This document shows positions 1 to 11,525 of a stretch of DNA of 11,525 bases, piece after piece. Source of the stretch: a virus; UHGV virus genome UHGV-1357462; one strand, written 5' to 3'. The first letter of the stretch is position 1; each line of letters begins with the position of its first letter. The translations under genes were made by a program, and so were the position numbers. The notes under the pieces are model-generated. The model saw nothing but the letters and a program-made list of their open reading frames with translations, was not told the origin of the DNA and made no database searches.

Positions 1-786
1 CTGATTGACTGTGCAGCCGAACCGACACAGTTTAACGGACGATCGCTGGTACAGATTGCGCAGGCGCTTGCTGCGCCTTTCGGCATTGAGGTGGTGAACA
101 ACAGTGCGCCGTCGGGTGTTATTCCTGATGTCCAGCCTGATCACGGCGAAACGGTGATTGAGGTGATCAACAAAATACTCGGTCAGCAGCAGGCACTGGC
201 TTACGACGACCCGCACGGCAGGCTGGTGATTGGCGGTATTGGCTCAACGCGGGCACATACCGCGCTGGTACTTGGGGAAAACATCCTTTCCTGTGATACG
301 GAGAAGAGTATCCGGGAGCGGTTTTCAGTTTACCAGGTGGCGGGGCAGCGTGCCGGAAACGACGATGATTTCGGTGAGGCCACCACCACCGCGCTGCGGG
401 CCCGCACAGAGGACGCATTTATTGCCCGTTACCGTCCGATGTATATCAGGCAGACAGGGCAGGCCACGGGGGCAGGCTGTATTGCCCGTGCGGACTTTGA
501 AGCCCGACAACGGGCGGCGCGGACGGATGAAACCACCTATGTGGTGCAGGGATGGCGACAGGGTAACGGTACGCTGTGGCAGCCCAACCAGCGGGTGATT
601 GTCTTCGATCCGGTCTGTGGTTTCGACAATACCGAACTGCTTGTCTCGGAAGTCACGTTTACTCAGGACCAGAACGGCACCCTGACGGAAATCCGTGTCG
701 GCCCACCTGATGCTTATCTGCCTGAACCCGAAGCCCCCGGCGCGCGGAAAAAGAAAAAAGCCAGAGTACAGGAGGACCCGTTCTGA
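1..786 (+). CDS. Baseplate hub / tail protein, P2 gpD (late control D) - Mu P-like; 5'-partial, the frame is open from position 1
   Basis: Frame 1 has no stop from nt 1 to the TGA at 784-786; the 91 start in the ORF track is a GTG inside a longer gene. Its position directly upstream of a gpV-like spike gene and its overlap with it (TGATG at 784-788) match the Mu P-Q / P2 D-V order. Family assignment is from recalled similarity, not a search. Confidence 0.6.
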   Translation: MIDCAAEPTQFNGRSLVQIAQALAAPFGIEVVNNSAPSGVIPDVQPDHGETVIEVINKILGQQQALAYDDPHGRLVIGGIGSTRAHTALVLGENILSCDTEKSIRERFSVYQVAGQRAGNDDDFGEATTTALRARTEDAFIARYRPMYIRQTGQATGAGCIARADFEARQRAARTDETTYVVQGWRQGNGTLWQPNQRVIVFDPVCGFDNTELLVSEVTFTQDQNGTLTEIRVGPPDAYLPEPEAPGARKKKKARVQEDPF

Positions 787-1334
787 TGAGGACGATTGAA
801 GCCATGCAGCGACAACTCCTCGGCCTGATTGGGCGGGCTGTGGTGAAAAGCATCAGTGCCGCCACGAAATGTCAGACCGTGGATGTGTCCCTGATTGCCG
901 GTGAACCCAAAGCCGGGGTTGAACATCTTGAACCCTACGGTTTTACCGCAAGGGCAAACAGCGGTGCGGAAGCGGTGGTGTTGTTTCCGGATGGCGACCG
1001 TTCTCATGCGGTGGTTGTTACGGTGTCGGACCGGCGCTACCGCCTGAAAGGGCTGCAGACGGGTGAGGTGGCTGTCTATGACGATCAGGGGCAGTCCGTG
1101 ACGCTGACCCGGGAGGGGATCGTGGTGGACGGTGCAGGTAAGACGATCACGTTTCGCAATGCGCCCAGAGCACGTTTTGAAATGGACCTGGAAGTGACCG
1201 GACAGGTGAAAGACCTGTGCGACTCCGGCGGCACCACCATGTCAGCGATGCGGCTTGCCTATAACGGGCATCGTCACAGAGAGAACGGTCAGGGCAGTAA
1301 CACCGATAAACCTGATAAAGCGATGGAGGCATGA
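786..1334 (+). CDS. Baseplate spike / assembly protein V-like (P2 gpV, Mu gp45)
   Basis: 182-codon ORF whose ATG at 786 overlaps the upstream stop; its size and position between the hub gene and the GP46/J genes fit the conserved baseplate order. Confidence 0.65.
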   Translation: MRTIEAMQRQLLGLIGRAVVKSISAATKCQTVDVSLIAGEPKAGVEHLEPYGFTARANSGAEAVVLFPDGDRSHAVVVTVSDRRYRLKGLQTGEVAVYDDQGQSVTLTREGIVVDGAGKTITFRNAPRARFEMDLEVTGQVKDLCDSGGTTMSAMRLAYNGHRHRENGQGSNTDKPDKAMEA

Positions 1335-1759
1335 TGGAACTGTGGCTGACGGTGAACGGTAAACGCACCTGCGCCAGCTCACCGCTGGATCCGCTGACCC
1401 GCGCCGTGGTGATTTCCCTGTTCACCTGGCGGCGGGCGGAGCCTGATGACAATGCCGACGTCCCGATGGGATGGTGGGGGGATACCTGGCCTGCGGTACA
1501 GAATGACCGTTACGGCTCCCGACTGTGGCTGCTTCAGCGCAGCAAACTGACCAATCAGCTGGTGCAGACGGTAAGGGGGTATATCCGCGAATGCCTGCAA
1601 TGGATGATTGATGACGGCGTGGTGTCCCGTATTGATCTGGATATCCGCCGCACCGGGATTAATGAGCTGGGTAACAGTATCACCCTCTGGCGTCGTGACG
1701 GACCGGTAATGATTTCTTTTGATGATCTGTGGAGTGCGATAACGCATGGCGGACAGTGA
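1331..1759 (+). CDS. Baseplate protein, phage GP46 family (Mu gp46-like)
   Basis: 142-codon ORF overlapping the upstream stop (ATGATGG). GGAGG at 1325-1329 is better spaced for the second ATG at 1334, so the true start may be 1334. Position between V-like and J-like genes. Confidence 0.55.
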   Translation: MMELWLTVNGKRTCASSPLDPLTRAVVISLFTWRRAEPDDNADVPMGWWGDTWPAVQNDRYGSRLWLLQRSKLTNQLVQTVRGYIRECLQWMIDDGVVSRIDLDIRRTGINELGNSITLWRRDGPVMISFDDLWSAITHGGQ

Positions 1760-2804
1760 ATTTCAGCGCCCGACGCTGGCAGAAAATATCAGTATGCTCC
1801 GTAACGATTTATTCGCCAGGCTGGACGTCAGCGACACGCTCCGGCGCATGGATGAAGACGTGCGGGCAAAGGTGTATGCGGCGGCGCTGCATACGGTTTA
1901 CGGGTACATCGATTATCTGGCAATGAACATGCTGCCTGACCTGTGCGATGAGTCCTGGCTGGCGCGACATGCTGCGATGAAACGGTGTCCGCGCAAGGGG
2001 GCCACGGCTGCCAGCGGGTATATGCGCTGGGAAGGTGTCAGCGATGGCCTGAAGGTGACTGCCGGGAGTGTTATTCAGCGCGATGACCTGGTTCAGTACA
2101 CGGCAACTGCCGATGCAACCAGCTCCGGTGGTGTCCTGCGCGTGCCGATCGCCTGCTCAAGTGCAGGCGCGGTCGGTAACGCTGACGACGGTACGTCATT
2201 AATCCTGGTCACGCCGGTTAATGGTCTGCCGTCTTCCGGCGTGGCAGATACCCTGACAGGTGGATTTGATACTGAAGAGCTGGAAACGTGGCGCGCCCGC
2301 GTCATTGAGCGATATTACTGGACGCCTCAGGGCGGGGCTGACGGGGACTATGTCGTCTGGGCTAAAGAAGTGCCCGGCATTACCCGCGCATGGACATACC
2401 GTCACTGGATGGGAACGGGAACTGTCGGTGTGATGATTGCCAGCAGTGACCTGATTAATCCCATTCCGGAAGAATCAACGGAAACGGCGGCAAGACAACA
2501 CATTGAGCCACTGGCCCCGGTGGCAGGCTCTGATTTGTATGTATTCAGGCCGGTGGCACATACGGTGGATTTTCATATCCGCGTGACGCCGGACACACCA
2601 GAAATACGGGCTGCCATTACCGCGGAGTTGCGTTCGTTCCTGCTGCGTGATGGTTATCCGCAGGGAGAACTGAAGGTATCGCGTATCAGTGAGGCGATTT
2701 CCGGTGCGAACGGGGAATACAGCCATCAGTTGCTTGCACCGGTGGACAATATCTCCATTGCGAAAAATGAGCTGGCGGTTCTGGGGACGATTTCATGGAC
2801 GTGA
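1746..2804 (+). CDS. Baseplate J-like protein (Mu gp47 / P2 gpJ family)
   Basis: 352-codon ORF whose ATG at 1746 overlaps the end of the previous gene (translational coupling). Size and conserved position match baseplate wedge protein J. Confidence 0.75.
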
Positions 2805-3379
2805 CAAACGATGATTACATCCGCCTGTTATCGGCACTGTTGCCGCCCGGTCCTGCATGGTCAGCCAGCGATCCGGCGATTGCCGGTGCGGCACCTTCAT
2901 TAACCCGCGTTCATCAGCGTGCGGATGCTCTGATGCGGGAGCTTGATCCGCGCACCACCACCGAGCTGATAAATCGCTGGGAGCGTCTGTGTGGCCTGCC
3001 GGATGAATGTATTCCCGCAGGGACACAGACCCTTCGCCAGCGTCAGCAACGGCTGGATGCGAAGGTTAACCTGGCGGGTGGCATCAACGAGGATTTTTAT
3101 CTTGCACAGCTTGCTGCCCTGGGCAGACCAGATGCCACCATCACGCGATACGACAAAAGCACGTTCACCTGCTCATCGGCCTGTACTGACGCTGTGAATG
3201 CGCCGGAATGGCGGTATTACTGGCAGGTCAACATGCCAGCCGCCACCAACACCACCTGGATGACATGTGGCGATCCCTGTGATTCCGCGCTGCGTATCTG
3301 GGGCGACACCGTTGTCGAGTGTGTGCTTAACAAACTCTGCCCGTCGCATACCTACGTAATTTTTAAATATCCGGAGTAA
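2795..3379 (+). CDS. Tail/baseplate protein, Mu gp48 / e14 YmfQ-like (DUF2313-type)
   Basis: 194-codon ORF overlapping baseplate J by 10 nt, located immediately before the tail-fibre gene as in Mu and e14; has the N-terminal LLPPGPAW segment I associate with this family. Confidence 0.55.
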
Positions 3380-3382
3380 TCC

Positions 3383-4129
3383 ATGCATCGTATAGACACG
3401 AAAACCGCGCAGAAGGATAAGTTCGGCGCGGGTAAGAACGGTTTTACCCGTGGTAACCCCCAGACAGGCACGCCTGCCACCGATCTGGATGATGACTACT
3501 TTGACATGTTGCAGGAAGAACTCTGCAGCGTGGTGGAGGCATCCGGTGCCAGTCTGGAGAAGGCGCGGCACGACCAACTGCTTACCGCGCTTCGTGCGCT
3601 GCTGTTAAGCCGCAAGAATCCGTTTGGCGATATCAAATCGGATGGCACGGTGAAAACGGCTCTCGAAAACCTTGGTTTGGGAGAAGGTGCTCCAGCTATT
3701 GGCGTTCCGTTCTTCTGGCCGTCCGCTGCAATGCCAAATACTGTAATCGACAGCTGGTCCAGTATGGTGTTTTTGAAGTTCAACGGCGCGAAATTCTCTG
3801 CCACTGATTATCCTGTGCTGGCGAAAGTGTTTCCTTCGCTGGTATTACCTGAAGCCCGCGGTGATTTCATTCGTATCTGGGATGACGGGCGAGGTGCAGA
3901 CGGTGGTCGCGAATTATTAAGCTGGCAGGAAGCTACAAACTTTTCTCAGTTTGCCGGGAATATAGGCGGAGGTGCGGGACACGCAATTAACTTTCATGAT
4001 GGCATCGCCGGAAATCAGCCAGGATTTTCACGATTTAATTTCACCAGTAACTCTGTGGGTGATGGTGTGAATTTTGTTGCTGTCAGACCGCGAAATATTG
4101 CATTTAACTTTCTGGTGAGGGCTAAATAA
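3383..4129 (+). CDS. Tail fibre protein: constant N-terminal part (3383-3672) fused to the currently expressed variable C-terminal part (3673-4129)
   Basis: GGAGT RBS at 3372-3376 and ATG at 3383. A 26-bp invertase crossover site lies inside the gene at 3660-3685. The stop TAA overlaps the ATG of the downstream assembly gene. The N-terminus resembles e14/Mu-type side tail fibre proteins. Confidence 0.8.
3660..3685. repeat. Invertase crossover site (pix/gix-like), left copy, inside the tail-fibre gene
   Basis: TTCTCGAAAACC-TT-GGTTTGGGAGAA: two imperfect 12-bp half-sites around a 2-bp core. 3672-3686 is a perfect 15-bp inverted repeat of 5464-5478, and 22 of 26 positions match the inverted right-hand site. 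Confidence 0.7.
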
Positions 4130-4722
4130 TGAAACCTGTTTTTGATGAAAATGGGCTGGCTACAGTGCCGGGCGATATGCGTTGTTTTTATTATGATGCT
4201 GAAACATCTGAGTATACGGGCTGGTCTGATGAATATATTAATACTGGCGTAAGTATGCCCGCCTGTTCCACTGGTATTGACCCGGGCGAAAACATTCCGG
4301 GGAAAGTGGCAGTATTTACGGGTAAGGGATGGAGCCATGAAGAAGACCATCGCAATGAGACTGTTTACTCAACAGAAAATGGCGCAGCTGTTACAGTGGA
4401 TTATATCGGTGCCATCAAAGACGGTTATGTCACGCTTTCACCGTTAACGCCATACGATAAATGGGATGGTGAGAAATGGGTGACGGATACCGAGGCACAG
4501 CATAGCGCCGCAGTAGACGCGGCAGAAGCACAACGTCAGTCACTGATTGATACTGCAATGGCTTCCATTAGTCTGATTCAACTGAAATTGCAGGCCGGAC
4601 GGAAACTGACGCAGGCAGAAACAACCCGACTTAACGCCGTGCTGGATTACATTGACGCGGTGACGGTAACAGATACCAGCACCGCGCCGGATATCATCTG
4701 GCCTGAACTGCCGGAGGCGTAG
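4129..4722 (+). CDS. Tail fibre assembly protein (Tfa / Mu U-like)
   Basis: 197-codon ORF whose start overlaps the tail-fibre stop (TAATG). Its 3' end overlaps the convergent tfa' gene; the C-terminal motif ...TSTAPDIIWPELP mirrors ...TSSAPDIEWPTPP in the - strand paralogue. Confidence 0.75.
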   Translation: MKPVFDENGLATVPGDMRCFYYDAETSEYTGWSDEYINTGVSMPACSTGIDPGENIPGKVAVFTGKGWSHEEDHRNETVYSTENGAAVTVDYIGAIKDGYVTLSPLTPYDKWDGEKWVTDTEAQHSAAVDAAEAQRQSLIDTAMASISLIQLKLQAGRKLTQAETTRLNAVLDYIDAVTVTDTSTAPDIIWPELPEA

Positions 4723-5113
4723 GCCATTCAATATCTGGCGCACTGGAAGTATCGACCAGCTCCAGTGCGTCCAGATAATCCAGCCACAAATTATATTGCG
4801 CCAGTTCCTCACCTTTCAGACGACCAATAGCCGCTTTACCAGGCCATTGCCTGCTGTTCATGTGCTCGTTGGCTTCATTAATAAGTTTTCCTTTTTTCAA
4901 CTCTGCCAATGCAATAAGGTTTTCTTTTGATAAAGGTGGTTGCTCTGTCAAAACCGGATATCCCTCCTGATTGCTGACTATTTTCATGCCATTATCCTGA
5001 CCATCCAGTAGTGACAGCCATTCATCCGTGGTTATCTCAACAGCATCTGAAGGTGCTTTATTTAAATCGGTAAAAAAACCATTTTCTTTTTGTGAATAGA
5101 AGTATCTGTCCAT
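4694..5113 (-). CDS. Alternative tail fibre assembly protein (Tfa' / U'-like), silent in this orientation
   Basis: 139-codon ORF on the - strand, convergent with and overlapping the + strand tfa by 29 nt. It shares the C-terminal motif with the + strand Tfa and lies 3 nt downstream of the alternative fibre-tip ORF. Confidence 0.7.
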   Translation of the reverse strand: MDRYFYSQKENGFFTDLNKAPSDAVEITTDEWLSLLDGQDNGMKIVSNQEGYPVLTEQPPLSKENLIALAELKKGKLINEANEHMNSRQWPGKAAIGRLKGEELAQYNLWLDYLDALELVDTSSAPDIEWPTPPAVQAR

Positions 5114-5116
5114 TTA

Positions 5117-5518
5117 TCAATCTCCAAAAGCAATCCAGTAAGCAAAAGGATTTATTCCTTGCTCAGTCACAGATGACATCAGGGAAAATTGCGATGGTGA
5201 AACAGGTAATGCTGCAAAACTAACCATTGTTGACACACCTGACCGTGCATTATCGTACGATGCAACAACACAATAATTGGTATTGCTGAAAGATATCGGC
5301 AGGGTGATATTTACAGGTGAGCCTAATGGCCCTGATGCTGATATTCCCATTTGAATGATGGTTCCATCAGGCAATTTTCTCCAGCGATTAGAACTCGGAT
5401 TTCTTTTCCAGGCTGACATATCCGGTATCTGATTTTCTCCTGTGCCTACATCCCTTTTCGCCGCTTCTCCCAAACCAACGTTTATGAAAATGCAGAAATA
5501 ACGAGCAAATGGCATCAT
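5117..5518 (-). CDS. Alternative tail-fibre variable C-terminal segment (Sv'-like), lacking its own start in this orientation
   Basis: The - strand ORF spans the right crossover site. The encoded NVGLGEAAK across the site parallels NLGLGEGA at the left site in the expressed fibre. The ATG at 5518 lies outside the invertible segment and is probably not a real start; functional coding would be 5477 down to 5117 after inversion. Confidence 0.6.
   Translation of the reverse strand: MMPFARYFCIFINVGLGEAAKRDVGTGENQIPDMSAWKRNPSSNRWRKLPDGTIIQMGISASGPLGSPVNITLPISFSNTNYCVVASYDNARSGVSTMVSFAALPVSPSQFSLMSSVTEQGINPFAYWIAFGD
5465..5490. repeat. Invertase crossover site (pix/gix-like), right copy, just upstream of the invertase gene
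   Basis: TTCTCCCAAACC-AA-CGTTTATGAAAA: same 12-2-12 architecture as Hin/Gin/Cin/Pin sites, in inverted orientation relative to 3660-3685, with the core AA versus TT. Confidence 0.7.
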
Positions 5519-5544
5519 TCCTGCTTTTGTCAGGGAGATCTACC

Positions 5545-5901
5545 ATGCTTATTGGCTATGTACGTGTGTCAACAAATGACCAGAACACAGATCTACAGCG
5601 TAATGCGCTGAACTGTGCAGGATGCGAGCTGATTTTTGAAGACAAGATAAGCGGTACAAAGTCTGAAAGGCCGGGACTGAAAAAACTGCTCAGGACATTA
5701 TCGGAAGGTGACACTCTGGTTGTCTGGAAGCTGGATCGGCTGGGGCGTAGTATGCGGCATCTGGTCATTCTGGTTGAGGAGTTGCGCGAACGTGGCGTTA
5801 ATTTTCGCAGCCTAACGGATGCTATTGATATCAGCACGTCGATGGGGCGTTTTTTCTTTTATGTGATGGGGGCCTTGGCTGAAATTGAGTTTCAGGATTA
5901 A
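5545..5901 (+). pseudogene. pin: Pin/Gin/Hin-family serine DNA invertase, truncated: catalytic domain only, C-terminal HTH DNA-binding domain missing
   Basis: Starts MLIGYVRVSTNDQ (active-site Ser region) with AGGGAG upstream. Recalled similarity to e14 PinE runs to about codon 115 (…GALAEIE), then the frame ends after FQD at 5899-5901. Full-length invertases are about 185-190 aa. Neither of the other two frames downstream encodes a recognisable invertase C-terminus. Confidence 0.6.
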
Positions 5902-6114: not shown

Positions 6115-7119
6115 TCACTGAGTGCCTTCATCTGGTTGCTCTGCTGGTAAGGTTCCAGCCTCTTCTTCAGTTTCCGCATGTTTTCCATCGCCTCCCTGGA
6201 CAGGTTCATCCCTTGGCGGTTCTGCTCTTCCTGAATTTTGGTCAGAGATTTCATCTCCTTCCTGAATTCTGCTGTTGTCATGGGAATCTTCCTCTGCGTT
6301 AGTTGTTTCATATTGTTTTTTAGGAGTTAAATCTTTAATCATCGGTTTGTCGAAGATAGAGATTTCGCCTGACGAAATCATTTCACCAAGAACTTCGTAC
6401 AGGTTGGCTGCAAAATCTGTAGGACTCTCAACATGGTTGAATAGTTCCCTCGCCTCTTTACGGTCTATCACAAAACCATGGGCTGGATATCCAGCGATCA
6501 ACTTGCCTAATGAGCTTTCCTTAAGATTTTTCGAGTGACTATTCAAACGTTCCCCATAGGAAAGCGCTATGTTCATTGCTCGCTGATGCTCCCCGAGTTT
6601 GATAGGGTCTATCTGTGAGGCCATCGGCGATATGATTGCTTCAGTAAGCTTAGCAGCAATATCTGCAGACATCTTTGTGCTAATTTGGTTTCTGTACTTT
6701 ATATCAAGTACGTATGATCTAAAGGTCGAAATAGCGCACTCTTTTATTTCATCAATCGCCGTTGCGATAACAAGGCCCGAGCTCAATTCGCCGATCTCAT
6801 CATTTTTCTTAAGTTGGATATCTAGAGGGCCAAGCTCACCCATATCACCAATCACGAGCTTATGAGCGGCGACAGCCATCAATGTTCCAGCACTTTTGCA
6901 AGGGCCAACAACTAGAACGGTGATGTGCTCATAGTTGTGTTGCAAAGCGCGGCCAATTCTATATCCTGCGCTGGGATCACCGCCATAGGTAGCGACGCAA
7001 AAAAGAACATTTTTTTGTAAACCATGGTTAGTTTTTCTTTCTTTAATCGCTTTGGTGATGTCGTGATGACCAGAGCGGTGAACATCGCCTATGTATACGT
7101 AAACGTCTGTATCTTGCAT
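6115..7119 (-). CDS. ClpP/crotonase-fold serine peptidase (ClpP / S49 / SDH-like) with a long acidic C-terminal tail
   Basis: 334-codon ORF with AGGGA RBS. By eye the core aligns to ClpP: VATYGGDPSAGYRIGRALQ vs INSPGGVITAGMSIYDTMQ, and ITVLVVGPCKSAGTLMAVAAH vs [21 protein letters not shown], placing a Ser at the nucleophile position. The last 60 or so residues are D/E/G/P-rich. No His at the ClpP His position, so possibly a Ser-Lys dyad. Confidence 0.55.
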   Translation of the reverse strand: MQDTDVYVYIGDVHRSGHHDITKAIKERKTNHGLQKNVLFCVATYGGDPSAGYRIGRALQHNYEHITVLVVGPCKSAGTLMAVAAHKLVIGDMGELGPLDIQLKKNDEIGELSSGLVIATAIDEIKECAISTFRSYVLDIKYRNQISTKMSADIAAKLTEAIISPMASQIDPIKLGEHQRAMNIALSYGERLNSHSKNLKESSLGKLIAGYPAHGFVIDRKEARELFNHVESPTDFAANLYEVLGEMISSGEISIFDKPMIKDLTPKKQYETTNAEEDSHDNSRIQEGDEISDQNSGRAEPPRDEPVQGGDGKHAETEEEAGTLPAEQPDEGTQ

Positions 7120-7760: not shown

Positions 7761-8178
7761 TGTACAAATGTTCTTTGGCTACAAATACACCTACTGATCA
7801 TGTTCTGCTATGCTCTGATACCTCCAAAATGTACAATCAGCGGCATGAATTTTTCTTTGTACATATGATTGTACATAATTAAAGAGACAACAATTATGAC
7901 AAGCCTTTTGGCCGCAGAGGTAGCGAAAAGAAGAACCTTTGCAATTATTTCTCACCCCAATAATTAAGTCCAAATTAAAGCTCTTTTACTCTTTCAAAAT
8001 CCTTTCAGTTAATTGAAGTTGAGCTATATAACTCATTTAAATACATTTGTTTATGTAGCTTCTTTAATTGAAAACTCTTTCATGTAACTTTAAATCGATC
8101 AGCTTGCTTTCATCAAAAACCTGTACATATGCTTGTACATAATGTACAAAACAGCAGAGGTGTTTTGCGATTTGTACA
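7761..8178. repeat. AT-rich array of eight TGTACA(W)A motifs including a 22-bp direct repeat; candidate integrase arm sites / attP or operator array
   Basis: TGTACA at 7761, 7830, 7858, 7870, 8122, 8134, 8143 and 8173. The 22-mers at 7858-7879 (TGTACATATGATTGTACATAAT) and 8122-8143 (TGTACATATGCTTGTACATAAT) match at 21 of 22 positions. Sits between the dinI promoter and the integrase start. Confidence 0.6.
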
Positions 8179-8187
8179 AGGTGAGTA

Positions 8188-9411
8188 ATGGCGCTGTCTG
8201 ATGCGTGGTTGCGTTCAGTCGTTGGAAAGGAACGTGATAAGGTTTTGGTTAAATCCGATCGTGATGGTCTGTCTGTCAGAGTATCACCGAAAGGTCGCGT
8301 AGTGTTCCAATATCGTTATCAATGGGCAGGGAAAGGTGAGCGTCTTGATATCGGAACTTACCCGGCAACTGGATTAAAAGAGGCCAGAGAAGAAGTTATC
8401 CGTCTTCGTGGTGAACTCGAGTCAAACCGTAATCCACGATTGGTCAAGCAGGCTGAAAAACGAAAAGCTACTGAAGCCATGACGGTAGAGTCTGTGATCC
8501 GTGCTTGGTATGAAGCATATTGTGTAAAAAATAAAAAAGGTTCTGAACAGATACTTCGCTCGTTTGAGCTGCACCTGTTCTCTAAAATCGGGAATATCCC
8601 TCACGATGCAGCTACATTGCATGATTGGTTAGAAGTCCTGGAGCCTCTTAGCACTAAGACTCCAGCAATAGCAGACCGATTGCTAATTAACGCAAAGCAG
8701 GCCCATGTCTGGGCGTATAAGAGAAAGCTCATTGAAACTCGCCCGCTGTCGGATATCACGGGTAAAGATATGGATATCCGTAAAGGTCAGAAGAAACGGT
8801 TTCTGACACATGATGAAATTAAAATCCTTTATGCTGCGATCGATGGTTCTCGAATGGTTCCTAAATACCGGGCCTTCATTAAACTATTGCTGCATTTTGG
8901 TTGCCGTAGTTCAGAGCTAATTACCGCCCGGGTGGACGATTTTGATTTCATTAATAAAGTATGGACTGTACCACCAGAACGACATAAGACAGGGGAGATA
9001 ACAGGCGAACCGCTAAAGCGGCCCATTATTGAACCGGTTGAAGAGCTTATAAAGTACGCTATCTCTATGAACAATGGTTCCGATATGCTTTTTACTAAGG
9101 AAGGAAGCAGGGAACCCGTTGGTCGGACATCATTGCAGTCGCTGCCTTACAATTTAATGCAGTACGCATGGCGGTGTTTAGGATATCAATTCCCTCATTG
9201 GTCTCTTCATGACTTGAGACGTACAGCTCGAACAAATTTTTCTGATCTTACTGCGCCTCATATCGCAGAAATTATGCTTGGTCATAAGCTGCCAGGGGTA
9301 TGGCAAGTTTATGATAAGAGCGATTATCTAGAAGAACAGCGTAAAGCTTACCTGGCATGGTGGAAGAGGGTTGAATCGATTGTTAATTGTACTATCTCTG
9401 ATTCAAACTGA
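8188..9411 (+). CDS. int: Tyrosine integrase, P4-type, with an N-terminal arm-binding (DUF4102-like) domain
   Basis: 407 codons with AAGGTGAG RBS. N-terminal …GLSVRVSPKGRVVFQYRY… is typical of P4-family integrases. Catalytic-domain hallmarks are present: LHFGCRSSEL (Arg), HDLRRTART (His-x-x-Arg) and LGHK…VYDKSDY (His and Tyr). Confidence 0.9.
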   Translation: MALSDAWLRSVVGKERDKVLVKSDRDGLSVRVSPKGRVVFQYRYQWAGKGERLDIGTYPATGLKEAREEVIRLRGELESNRNPRLVKQAEKRKATEAMTVESVIRAWYEAYCVKNKKGSEQILRSFELHLFSKIGNIPHDAATLHDWLEVLEPLSTKTPAIADRLLINAKQAHVWAYKRKLIETRPLSDITGKDMDIRKGQKKRFLTHDEIKILYAAIDGSRMVPKYRAFIKLLLHFGCRSSELITARVDDFDFINKVWTVPPERHKTGEITGEPLKRPIIEPVEELIKYAISMNNGSDMLFTKEGSREPVGRTSLQSLPYNLMQYAWRCLGYQFPHWSLHDLRRTARTNFSDLTAPHIAEIMLGHKLPGVWQVYDKSDYLEEQRKAYLAWWKRVESIVNCTISDSN

Positions 9412-9697
9412 CGGTTTGTATCACCTGAACATAACCAAATCTCCTAGCACACTTTGAGCGAGATGTGAGCGTTAAGTTTACGCCATTGTGTTGACATAAG
9501 AGGGGGGCGGGTATCGATATCATCACTATCCCTATGCCCCTAAATCGCTCCTGCCATTTGATAAATGCAGATGTTTACCACCAAATGTTTTTGATACTAT
9601 AGGTCGATTCATGATTTACCTAGAAACTTAGTTGTAACGAAAACTTCTTAACGGACACTATCTGGATAAAGTTAGTTTTTTATTTAAGAGGGTTAAC

Positions 9698-10417
9698 ATG
9701 TCAAAGTTAAAAAATGAACCATTAGTAAGGGTATCAGAAGAAGACGGAATAGAAATAAGGAAGATCCAATATCCAGATAATACGATAGAAAGAATTTATA
9801 AGCAGAAAGGTGTAATATTACCACGAATACCTTTAAAAGGCCGCTTTGTAGAACAATATGTGGCCTTACAGTTGCTTGATAAAGATCTTCGGAATGTTAT
9901 TGGTTGGGAGAATATAATAAAAAACATTTGTAATAACATTAATAAAGAACAACACTTTATTTATCCGGATTTAGAAAAGAATCTAATATTAAAGTCTTTA
10001 TTTATATCAAAAGTTGTTACTTACGGTAAGTGTTTTACAGAGGCGAAAGGGCGTCGATTCACATTGCAGAGAAAGCATGTGCCAGAAAAATACAGAGATT
10101 TACATGATTCTATTATGAATGTTAGACATAACTTTGCTGCCCATAAAGGTGAATTCGAATATGATCAATGTGGCTTGGTTTTAATATTGCCGGGGACCAA
10201 GAAGAAAAGGTACTATCATATTTTTTCAGAGCTCAATCAAATAAATTACGGTAATAATGAGGAAGATGATGAACGTTTTTTTATGTTATATGATTCACTG
10301 CGTGAAGTCATTAAAGAAAAACAAGATAAATTAATTGATAAAATATACGCTGAAAAGATTCATACTCAAACAATGGAGTATTGGTTGAGCCGAGCAGGAA
10401 AAGAAACAGAGATTTAA
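9698..10417 (+). CDS. Hypothetical protein, very AT-rich orphan cargo gene; weak HEPN-like R-x5-H motif (VRHNFAAH)
   Basis: 239 codons with a strong RBS (AAGAGGG, 10 nt before the ATG). Clearly lower G+C than all neighbours. No family recognised beyond an R-x5-H spacing compatible with the loose HEPN Rx4-6H signature. Sits between the integrase and the AlpA-like gene. Confidence 0.7.
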   Translation: MSKLKNEPLVRVSEEDGIEIRKIQYPDNTIERIYKQKGVILPRIPLKGRFVEQYVALQLLDKDLRNVIGWENIIKNICNNINKEQHFIYPDLEKNLILKSLFISKVVTYGKCFTEAKGRRFTLQRKHVPEKYRDLHDSIMNVRHNFAAHKGEFEYDQCGLVLILPGTKKKRYYHIFSELNQINYGNNEEDDERFFMLYDSLREVIKEKQDKLIDKIYAEKIHTQTMEYWLSRAGKETEI

Positions 10418-10699
10418 TTTGTTCAGTATATAAAAGCTAATTTTTAAGGAGTAATTTTAAGATGATTAAAGCTGATTACATTGCGATAGGTACTCTACGA
10501 CTAACTTTTCAACAAGATTAAGGGGGTAATCAATTTTATTTGTATCAATGGTATGACATTTCTTGGTGATAATGTTTTGATCTTATCGATTCATGTCATA
10601 TGGTCATTGGTGACGTCCGCTCTTGGTAAAGAGTGGACGCTCAGATTAGGTTTGGCATCTAAGCATAGATGTGTCAGCTCACATCTAAGCTAATACATA

Positions 10700-10894
10700 T
10701 TACTCAATCACTCCCGCAAATCTGTAAATCTTGTGTGATGCCCATTTATTTGGGCAGGATTTAATATCAGGATCTGGAAAGTCAGGCCTGTATTTCTGAC
10801 CAGTTCTCCTGTTTACGCTGTTCCAGCGAAGAACTGTCGATACTGAAACACCACAGAAATCGGCGACTTGTTTAGTTGTCATTAAGTTGTTCAT
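10700..10894 (-). CDS. AlpA/Xis-family helix-turn-helix DNA-binding protein (excisionase / transcriptional regulator-like)
   Basis: 64 codons. N-terminal TTKQVADFCGVSVSTVLRW looks like an HTH. GGAGG RBS, and the start overlaps the upstream gene's stop (TAATG). Small size and position next to the integrase region fit this family. Confidence 0.6.
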   Translation of the reverse strand: MNNLMTTKQVADFCGVSVSTVLRWNSVNRRTGQKYRPDFPDPDIKSCPNKWASHKIYRFAGVIE

Positions 10895-11525
10895 TACTTC
10901 ACCTCCTGCGGCGGCTCCGGTAGTGGCATCCAGTGGGTTACTTTCGATGCCTGTTCTTCCTCATTGTCAGTAACTGCCCACCATTTGTTTCTCGACCAAT
11001 CGTAATACCCTTCGAAGGTATCGCACTCAGTCCAGCCGTAAGACTTCCCCCAACACCAAACATACTGTTTATCATTCGGCATTCGCTCACTACAGCTTAT
11101 CCAACCACCCGGACTTACCGGAGAGTTGCCAGACAGCGCGTTCTGCAGCCGTTCCAGCTTAACGTATTCCTGAACCCTGTTTCCGTCGCACACCTGAAGC
11201 CATTGCGCAGCCTTTTGCGCATCAGTGTGAAAGGCACAAGTGCGACCGTCATCAAATTGCATTTCGTAGAGGTCAGCAACTTGTTCAAACTGCGTGTGTG
11301 GTGACTTGTAAGTTTGGTTTACAGGTTCGGCACCATGAAGCATGGCGGCGCGGCAGGCGTTCCAGCCTTCATCAAAACCGACTATGCCATTATTTAAAGA
11401 CGGACGAGCATCTGGCACTACCGGCACTGGCTTGGCTATATATAGCGGCTGAACATACCAGCCCTTTGATAACCAACTGTCAGCAATGTTTTTACACCTC
11501 GTTATTGCCGGAATACCTAAGCCAT
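10894..11525 (-). CDS. Phage early-region protein with a C-terminal DUF551-like domain; 5'-partial, the frame is open to the window end
   Basis: The reading frame has no stop between 11525 and the ORF-track start, which is a GTG with no good RBS, so the gene most likely starts beyond the window. The W-rich C-terminus (WISCSERMPNDKQYVWCWG…THWMPLPEPP) is typical of DUF551 domains in lambdoid early regions. Translationally coupled to the AlpA-like gene. Confidence 0.55.
   Translation of the reverse strand, partial: GLGIPAITRCKNIADSWLSKGWYVQPLYIAKPVPVVPDARPSLNNGIVGFDEGWNACRAAMLHGAEPVNQTYKSPHTQFEQVADLYEMQFDDGRTCAFHTDAQKAAQWLQVCDGNRVQEYVKLERLQNALSGNSPVSPGGWISCSERMPNDKQYVWCWGKSYGWTECDTFEGYYDWSRNKWWAVTDNEEEQASKVTHWMPLPEPPQEVK

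Follow-up and report, generated by a model that had tools for sequence, protein, structure and literature searches.

Two prophage-encoded defences are the closest described counterparts of the gene considered here. HepS, carried by the Gifsy-1 prophage of Salmonella, is a 'HEPN solo' abortive-infection anticodon nuclease; it is held as a latent solo tetramer, is activated by the tail-tip protein J and cuts tRNA anticodon loops (PMC13043305). Tha is a tail-activated HEPN system of the S. aureus phages 80alpha and phiNM2 that acts as an Abi-like non-specific RNase; in 80alpha its gene adjoins int and is read from the cI promoter; the protein is made in the lysogen, and minor tail proteins activate it (PMC11087260). 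Defence hotspots are also known in P2 and P4 prophages and satellites (PMC9122126). Here we analyse the virus genome UHGV-1357462, an 11,525-nucleotide stretch of Escherichia coli temperate-phage DNA in the excised (attP) arrangement (the window), in which a gene of the family phrog_8440 lies in a slot between the integrase gene (int) and a small excisionase-like gene (xis). Motif, conservation and predicted fold lead us to propose, with moderate confidence, that this gene is an unannotated solo HEPN-like candidate defence cargo in an integrase-proximal hotspot. The gene and the slot that holds it are laid out as follows.

9698..10417, + strand: 239-amino-acid phrog_8440-family gene, candidate stand-alone HEPN-like defence protein (open reading frame, family searches, AlphaFold models)
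8188..9411, + strand: tyrosine integrase, left border of the slot (Pfam PF00589, Phage_integrase; PF13356, Arm-DNA-bind_3; PF22022)
10700..10894, - strand: 64-amino-acid helix-turn-helix (HTH) protein, excisionase/AlpA-like, right border of the slot (weak HTH_17 and MerR matches)
9420..10668, no strand: replaceable cargo cassette (blastn of window 9000-11525 against loci L002-L005 and L013-L016)

Like the phrog_8440 protein, HepS is encoded by a prophage, has one HEPN-type Rx4-6H motif and has no partner gene. HepS occupies an accessory-gene position of a lambdoid prophage, whereas the phrog_8440 gene sits between int and xis; compared with the published description of HepS, the Rx5H of the phrog_8440 protein is at residues 143-149, and the protein additionally has a beta module at its N-terminus and a beta-hairpin that follows the motif. 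The Gifsy-1 record of strain LT2 holds no open reading frame with the HepS residues R100 and H105, because the HepS study used strain 14028. Tha resembles the phrog_8440 gene in adjoining int and a small 'xis'-like gene, in its case within the lysogeny module, and consists of an N-terminal region without assigned fold and a HEPN domain. It differs in that Tha-1 is 301 residues long, carries its motif, RNSIMH (Rx4H), near the C-terminus and has an adjacent inhibitor, Ith, that spares its own phage (PMC11087260). Neither homology to Tha-1 or Tha-2 nor a cargo-specific Ith was found at our locus, where the neighbouring HTH gene belongs to the phage backbone. Further known counterparts are the lactococcal Abi HEPN families, AbiU2 above all, and the HEPN-MNT toxins (PDB 7AE2); the latter are partnered, whereas the phrog_8440 gene has no adjacent MNT or other partner. 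The int-xis slot itself is like the P2/P4 hotspots in being a fixed position of a mobile element at which unrelated defence genes are swapped.

The open reading frame begins with ATG on the + strand and has a ribosome-binding site of its own:

9687..9693, + strand: Shine-Dalgarno-like AAGAGGG, 4 nucleotides 5' of the ATG of the phrog_8440 gene (read from the sequence)

Its G+C content is 0.315, as against 0.444 for int, 0.415 for the small HTH/xis gene and 0.517 for the DUF551 gene beyond it, and G+C at third codon positions (GC3) is 0.27. A preliminary description of this locus had singled out a 239-codon gene with lower G+C than every neighbour and its own ribosome-binding site, and both points stand (31.5% against 42-52% in adjacent genes). 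The gene is the lowest in G+C in the window, yet not the sole AT-rich stretch, as the attP region (0.327) and both spacers beside the gene (0.39 and 0.34) are likewise AT-rich. A promoter and terminator scan found no terminator near the gene, and an Rfam scan of its flanks returned no RNA, the sole match being a chance snoRNA below threshold.

The 239-residue protein is a full-length match to phrog_8440, a PHROGs family with no assigned function. Word-indexed searching gave 25 clusters, whose named members belong to Escherichia, Cronobacter, Leclercia, Yersinia, Enterobacter and Citrobacter. A profile run against 1.84 billion representatives extended this to 925 family proteins at E<=1e-3 (398 at E<=1e-10), so that the family comprises at least 925 clusters at 50% identity. 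Nearly all relatives are single-domain proteins of 220-250 residues, matched over most of their length; further named members come from Photobacterium, Vibrio, Psychromonas, Alteromonadaceae, Pantoea and Pseudomonas, all annotated 'hypothetical'. By group, the named members fall in the Enterobacteriaceae with the related Yersinia and Pantoea, the Vibrionaceae, the Alteromonadales and Pseudomonas, and the exact protein of the window is recorded on 885 contigs. No curated family in Pfam, NCBIfam or PADLOC matched it; 117 diverse members gave no Pfam match at E<=0.01 save one spurious, and the family profile matched no PDB sequence. The gene had been described at first as an orphan of no recognisable family. 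This was right for curated families, but the protein belongs to phrog_8440, which counts 925 or more relatives when clustered at 50% identity. The check for homology to a structural or replication protein, which had been set against the proposal from the outset, found none by sequence or profile searches.

An alignment of the 117 members (A2; mean column identity 22%) shows which positions the family retains. Five residues are invariant in all 117, namely D63, Y109, R119, H136 and R143, and H149 is kept in 116. G151 (114), F113 (113), K111 and A148 (112 each) and W70 (111) are nearly as constant. The family motif is R-[HN]-N-[FY]-[AV]-A-H-[SA]-G; the position right after R143 is H in 67 members, N in 49 and D in one, and the spacing from R143 to H149 is x5 in 111 of the 117. 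The consensus around D63 is E61-K-D63-L-R65. The conserved charged residues suggest an enzyme, with the following as its most telling elements.

10124..10144, + strand: R143-H-N-F-A-A-H149, Rx5H motif, candidate catalytic site, at the C-terminal end of helix 3, conserved in the family
9884..9886, + strand: codon of D63, the invariant acidic residue in predicted helix 1 (117 of 117 members)

An Rx4-6H pattern as such means little. It occurs in 74% of shuffles of the 239-residue protein, and the protein has a second, unconserved Rx6H at 120-127. The Rx5H motif is informative only because R143 and H149 are conserved. The R-x5-H spacing of VRHNFAAH that was first remarked on, as compatible with but not diagnostic of a HEPN RNase, is therefore there and conserved, and the caution attached to it was justified.

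Structure prediction with AlphaFold2 gave a mean predicted local distance difference test score (pLDDT) of 87.1 and a predicted template modelling score (pTM) of 0.76 from a 24-row alignment (A1), rising to 93.7 and 0.86 with the 117-row alignment; both models have the same topology by DSSP. They divide the protein into two parts.

9719..9838, + strand: N-terminal three-stranded beta module, residues ~8-47, strands 9-15, 18-24 and 30-36 (DSSP, both models)
9842..10360, + strand: helical core, residues 49-221, with predicted helices H1 49-79, H2 92-111, H3 130-148 and H4 188-221

The core also has a predicted short helix at 83-88 and two predicted inserts, a loop at 112-129 that bears a conserved K-C-F-T...G-R and a beta-hairpin at 157-180. 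The beta module is less conserved, matches to distant relatives mostly beginning at residues ~20-30, and is possibly a sensor or oligomerisation part. In both models R143-H149 covers the final turns of the long helix H3 and the first residue of the loop behind it. An R-x5-H at the end of helix 3 of a four-helix bundle is, as predicted here, at the place of the HEPN signature.

HEPN domains are four-helix up-down bundles with frequent inserts between helices 2 and 3; their Rx4-6H motif has a polar residue, mostly N, D or H, right after the R, and a second conserved acidic residue, often within Ex3[KR], lies upstream in helix 2, near the motif (PMC3710099). Csx1 has a beta-hairpin right after the motif, and HEPN enzymes cleave RNA without metal, leaving 2',3'-cyclic phosphate ends, with R/H pairs contributed by two protomers (PMC3710099). 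With one exception, the position of the acidic residue, the features of this 2013 survey map onto the phrog_8440 family. It has a conserved Rx4-6H motif, the residue after the R is H, N or D in all 117 members, and the motif at 143-149 occupies the expected place in the predicted helical bundle.

Several observations weigh against counting the family among the HEPN proteins. The invariant D63 falls in predicted helix 1, as against helix 2 in the survey (PMC3710099), and the conserved Y109, K111, R119 and H136 lie outside the classic HEPN site and could serve a different chemistry. No significant match to a HEPN family was obtained with Pfam on the 117 members, NCBIfam, PADLOC or PDB profiles, and no match at E<=0.01 in Pfam, NCBIfam or PADLOC was common to more than one member. 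The commonest weak Pfam match was HEPN_AbiU2 (PF18734), in only 4 of the 117 members and far below the Pfam threshold (E>=0.036, the best being 0.036); this signal was not reproduced when the family consensus was compared with Pfam, which gave only spurious matches of coiled-coil type. An hhalign comparison of the family profile with Tha-1 returned nothing (probability 0.3%). Foldseek found no match to the predicted structure in PDB or BFVD at E<=1e-3, and in fold comparison designed bundles and chemoreceptor domains score equally well, the fold match being non-specific. As for expression, the promoter scan detected no sigma-70-like site on the + strand upstream of the gene, and so AT-rich a gene may be subject to H-NS silencing in E. 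coli. The HEPN assignment, which we hold with moderate confidence, is thus one of motif, conservation and place in the predicted fold, not of demonstrated homology. The test proposed at the start, a HEPN-like profile or fold match, has accordingly turned out in part: the motif is conserved at a HEPN-like place in the prediction, but no HEPN profile or fold was matched significantly.

The position of the gene can be judged independently of its fold. The integrase of the window is present in 700 of 5426 complete E. coli genomes and the phrog_8440 gene in 71, always on the chromosome, so that ~10% of prophages with this integrase carry it. Nine elements with the integrase, all at yjjG, were sampled, and these hold 7 different cargos in the int-xis slot.

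phrog_8440 gene: two elements
dGTPase-family protein: two elements
'anti-phage dCTP deaminase': one element
710-amino-acid CHAT protein: one element
646-amino-acid tetratricopeptide repeat (TPR) protein: one element
331-amino-acid protein without assigned family: one element
gene pair of 150 and 160 amino acids: one element

PADLOC matches among these cargos were BovA/Borvo (E 2.6e-241), dGTPase (8e-105) and dCTP deaminase (4e-164). The content of the slot thus varies between related elements, some of which keep validated defence systems in it (Borvo, dGTPase and dCTP deaminase). Homology between elements with different cargo ends at 9393-9458, at the 3' end of int, and returns at 10607-10704, just beyond the 3' end of the HTH gene, which delimits a cassette of ~1.2 kb holding only the phrog_8440 gene. 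The region of the HTH gene is also conserved beside dGTPase cargo, and this gene is a backbone gene rather than a cargo-specific one. We had considered the AlpA/HTH gene as a cargo-specific partner, and rejected this, as it is common to elements with other cargo. In the literature we found no description of a lambdoid int-xis slot at yjjG/prfC, in a search that was not exhaustive.

Some of the other cargos are of interest in their own right. Neither the 331-residue cargo of E. coli S88 (L002 5591-6586) nor the 150- and 160-residue gene pair of an O145:H28 strain (L003 5325-6301) has a PADLOC match, and the 646-residue TPR protein (L016 4899-6839) has weak matches to the candidate family PDC-M02A, at best E 3.8e-06 over ~80 residues. 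By position, all three are candidate new defence systems.

The protein had also been flagged by a computational screen. Table S10 of the DefensePredictor study, a collection of 1,041 E. coli pangenome clusters in which an uncharacterised defence protein is predicted, lists WP_000040218.1 as a 'Predicted novel defense gene' without known-defence homologue; this accession is the phrog_8440 allele annotated in strain K99B. Its mean log-odds is 9.62 (range 6.26-11.57), the stringent cutoff being 4. Of 94 units tested there, 42 gave protection against phage, and units with higher log-odds were validated more often; in the tables searched, neither WP_000040218.1 nor another accession of the protein is among the tested units (Table S6). 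A literature text search with the accessions of the protein found no paper.

Distant relatives occur in very different settings. In P2/186-like prophages of Enterobacter and of two Yersinia (39-42% identity) the relative directly follows int, overlapping its 3' end by ~17-20 nucleotides, and is the last gene before the end of the element. A 186-type cI, int and the relative are on one strand in the Yersinia prophages (L009), while int of the Enterobacter prophage (L006) has an HTH_3 regulator and two more genes ahead of it on its strand. In P2 and 186, a single transcript from the lysogenic promoter covers repressor and int. By analogy, the relatives in these P2/186-like carriers would be expressed in the lysogen. 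In P2 itself the interval between int and att is reported to be a minor defence hotspot (PMC13586616). A Pantoea relative stands at the end of a lambdoid prophage, after tail genes and a gene for a Y-family DNA polymerase (UmuC-like), and a relative from a metagenome adjoins an icd fragment, like e14-type elements.

Beyond tailed phages, a Vibrio cyclitrophicus relative (27.6% identical) is in the accessory part of a 10.9-kb inovirus. Accessory, hypervariable regions of inoviruses have been described as anti-phage hotspots (PMC12715192). A Vibrio alginolyticus relative is a few kb from TacAT and CBASS genes. A Photobacterium relative (32% identical) is a single-gene cassette of an integron array on the chromosome, in which attC-like repeats of ~106 nucleotides, at least 16 in number, recur at cassette spacing; one attC stops 11 nucleotides short of the start codon, and the 3' end of the gene reaches into the following one. 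A chromosomal relative in Pseudomonas has no integrase within the 7 kb examined per side. Neither MNT nor any other neighbour recurs beside the relatives in eight different contexts, and the adjacent MNT antitoxin that marks HEPN-MNT type II/VII toxin-antitoxin systems was seen in none of them. The phrog_8440 gene works, or at least travels, alone.

Two of these records, and the gene of the window itself, have further features. The other cassettes of the Photobacterium sp. J15 array (L018 1-14702) include SAD/SRA-HNH, DUF2971, DUF2726, FRG, OGG and a CyanoTRADDas_TM protein, and the array looks like a defence-rich cassette bank. The homologue in inovirus 10N.286.54.E4_PE002 (L025 2670-3407), phrog_8440 by PHROGs, bears a submitter's note 'endonuclease', the basis of which is unstated. 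In the window, a 19-codon open reading frame at 10463-10522 (+ strand; MIKADYIAIGTLRLTFQQD), with TAAGGAG ahead of it, lies downstream of the phrog_8440 gene within the exchangeable cassette; the Photobacterium integron cassette has no room for an equivalent. In two of the 71 E. coli genomes the phrog_8440 gene is split by an insertion sequence (IS), once by IS1 and once by an IS3-family element, which might reflect a cost of carriage or mere IS activity in AT-rich DNA.

NZ_CP116067.1 (L029 1501-2997): IS-interrupted copy of the phrog_8440 gene
NZ_CP182374.1 (H1/H55): IS-interrupted copy of the phrog_8440 gene

Taken together, these data make a defence or conflict role of some kind for the phrog_8440 gene probable. 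The more specific proposal, that it encodes a stand-alone latent HEPN-type RNase with which a temperate phage protects its lysogen by abortive infection, has in our estimate about an even chance of being correct. The protein would be made in the lysogen and held latent, as an oligomer, until a product of an infecting phage activates it. R143/H149 sites paired across two protomers would then cut RNA (tRNA, rRNA or mRNA) independently of metal, and translation would stop, aborting the infection. HepS and Tha are precedents for a prophage HEPN protein that both senses a structural protein of a phage and kills. By analogy, the N-terminal beta module and the hairpin after the motif, both specific to the family, would be regulatory or sensing parts. 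A bolder version, which we entertain only tentatively, is a self-contained sensor-effector and widespread one-gene defence, in which beta module and hairpin sense a phage component directly and unlock the HEPN-like site, or in which Y109, K111, R119 and H136 build a new chemistry. The preliminary description had put the gene forward as a candidate single-gene defence or abortive-infection protein in a variable slot between int and alpA. The slot is indeed variable (7 cargos in nine elements, the gene itself in 71 of 700 integrase-bearing genomes), and the slot, the conserved motif, the predicted fold and the DefensePredictor listing support the candidacy at the computational level.

The alternative that survives best is a conflict or defence protein that is not a HEPN enzyme, with D63, Y109, K111, R119, H136, R143 and H149 forming another active site (of a DNase, or of a nucleotide or protein modifier) or a binding surface, on a helical bundle whose likeness to HEPN would be superficial. 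The slot, the contexts of relatives and the DefensePredictor evidence fit it equally well, as do the lack of a HEPN profile match, the non-specific fold match and the four conserved residues outside the classic motif; the Vibrio inovirus homologue, moreover, was noted as an 'endonuclease' by its submitter, on an unstated basis. Set against these are the conserved motif and its HEPN-like place in the prediction, which a four-helix bundle would hardly acquire by chance, and we regard this alternative as possible but unlikely.

Somewhat doubtful, too, is a non-defensive accessory or life-cycle gene, acting in counter-defence, lysogenic conversion or as a helper of integration or excision. The gene adjoins int and xis in several phage types, and hotspots also house non-defence morons and anti-defence genes. 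However, only ~10% of same-integrase prophages carry it; as ~90% of sister prophages have unrelated genes instead, recombination does not depend on it. An integron cassette, an inovirus and a Pseudomonas chromosome with no integrase in the 7 kb examined per side hold relatives too, and the invariant charged residues suggest an enzyme. We consider a non-defensive role rather unlikely.

A third alternative is an addiction-module toxin that stabilises the prophage or cassette, its unrecognised antitoxin being a small RNA or the 19-codon open reading frame at 10463-10522. This seems quite improbable, as neither MNT nor any other conserved partner was found in the eight contexts, the attC repeats in Photobacterium leave space for the phrog_8440 relative only, the end of the element comes next after the gene in P2-like prophages, and the flanks of the gene in the window hold no Rfam RNA. 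Finally, a chance reading frame in an AT-rich spacer that makes no functional protein would suit the very low G+C and the lack of a sigma-70-like promoter upstream, but the conservation data effectively rule it out, length and invariant residues being kept in hundreds of relatives, some only ~20% identical, with a model pLDDT of 94 and the exact protein on 885 contigs.

The carrier is the phage (attP) form of a complete temperate phage, 2H10/CPS-53-like, that integrates between yjjG and prfC. From its left end the window holds Mu/SfV-type baseplate and tail-fibre genes (91-5518), a Pin-like invertase, an SDH-type ClpP-like protease and DinI; after an AT-rich stretch follow int, the phrog_8440 gene, the convergent 64-residue HTH gene and DUF551. 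Phage 2H10 has the same order, DinI, int, gene and excisionase; its phrog_8440 protein is 97.5% identical and its HTH gene carries the annotation excisionase. In complete E. coli genomes int-side matches start at window position 7916 (the yjjG side) and DinI-side matches stop at 7957, adjoining prfC; since, in addition, no complete E. coli genome spans the junction, the attP core can be placed between these positions.

7916..7957, no strand: approximate attP core (left and right parts of the window match opposite ends of the integrated prophage)

Tandem prophages, considered as an explanation of tail genes to the left of int, were rejected, the junction being the attP of one phage; an integrative satellite was likewise rejected as the carrier in favour of a complete, 2H10-like temperate phage. 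Integrated copies have a 69-nucleotide partial pseudo-CDS (coding sequence) between yjjG and int, near attL.

Elsewhere in the window, the ClpP-like homologue of SDH-type serine proteases (6115-7119, - strand; 334 residues; phrog_21683, weak PF01972 and NF047768 matches) has an acidic low-complexity C-terminal tail and adjoins DinI at the other prophage end. It has no PADLOC match, and its gene could be another accessory or moron gene. The open reading frame of the Pin-like DNA invertase (5509-5901, + strand) ends after ~130 codons. Invertases of the Pin/Gin type have ~190 residues, and this one may be truncated or frameshifted. It adjoins oppositely oriented reading frames for tail-fibre assembly and the tail-fibre tip (4694-5518, - strand), as is usual for an invertible host-range segment. 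The DUF551 gene has an extra ~159 nucleotides (53 codons) at window 11144-11303, as in sister prophage L001; most sister prophages lack the segment, their DUF551 protein having 206 residues as against 259.

Solo HEPN defences of prophages (HepS, Tha) and integrase-proximal hotspots were already known, and a machine-learning screen had flagged this protein, so that the proposal brings no conceptual surprise. The phrog_8440 gene is small, seems to act alone and has clear candidate catalytic residues. If the proposal is true, phrog_8440 would be a widespread one-gene defence family unrecognised by Pfam, NCBIfam and PADLOC v2, portable as an integron cassette and present in tailed and filamentous phages alike, and the int-xis slot of the yjjG/prfC prophages, which are found in 13% of complete E. 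coli genomes, would be a place to mine for systems.

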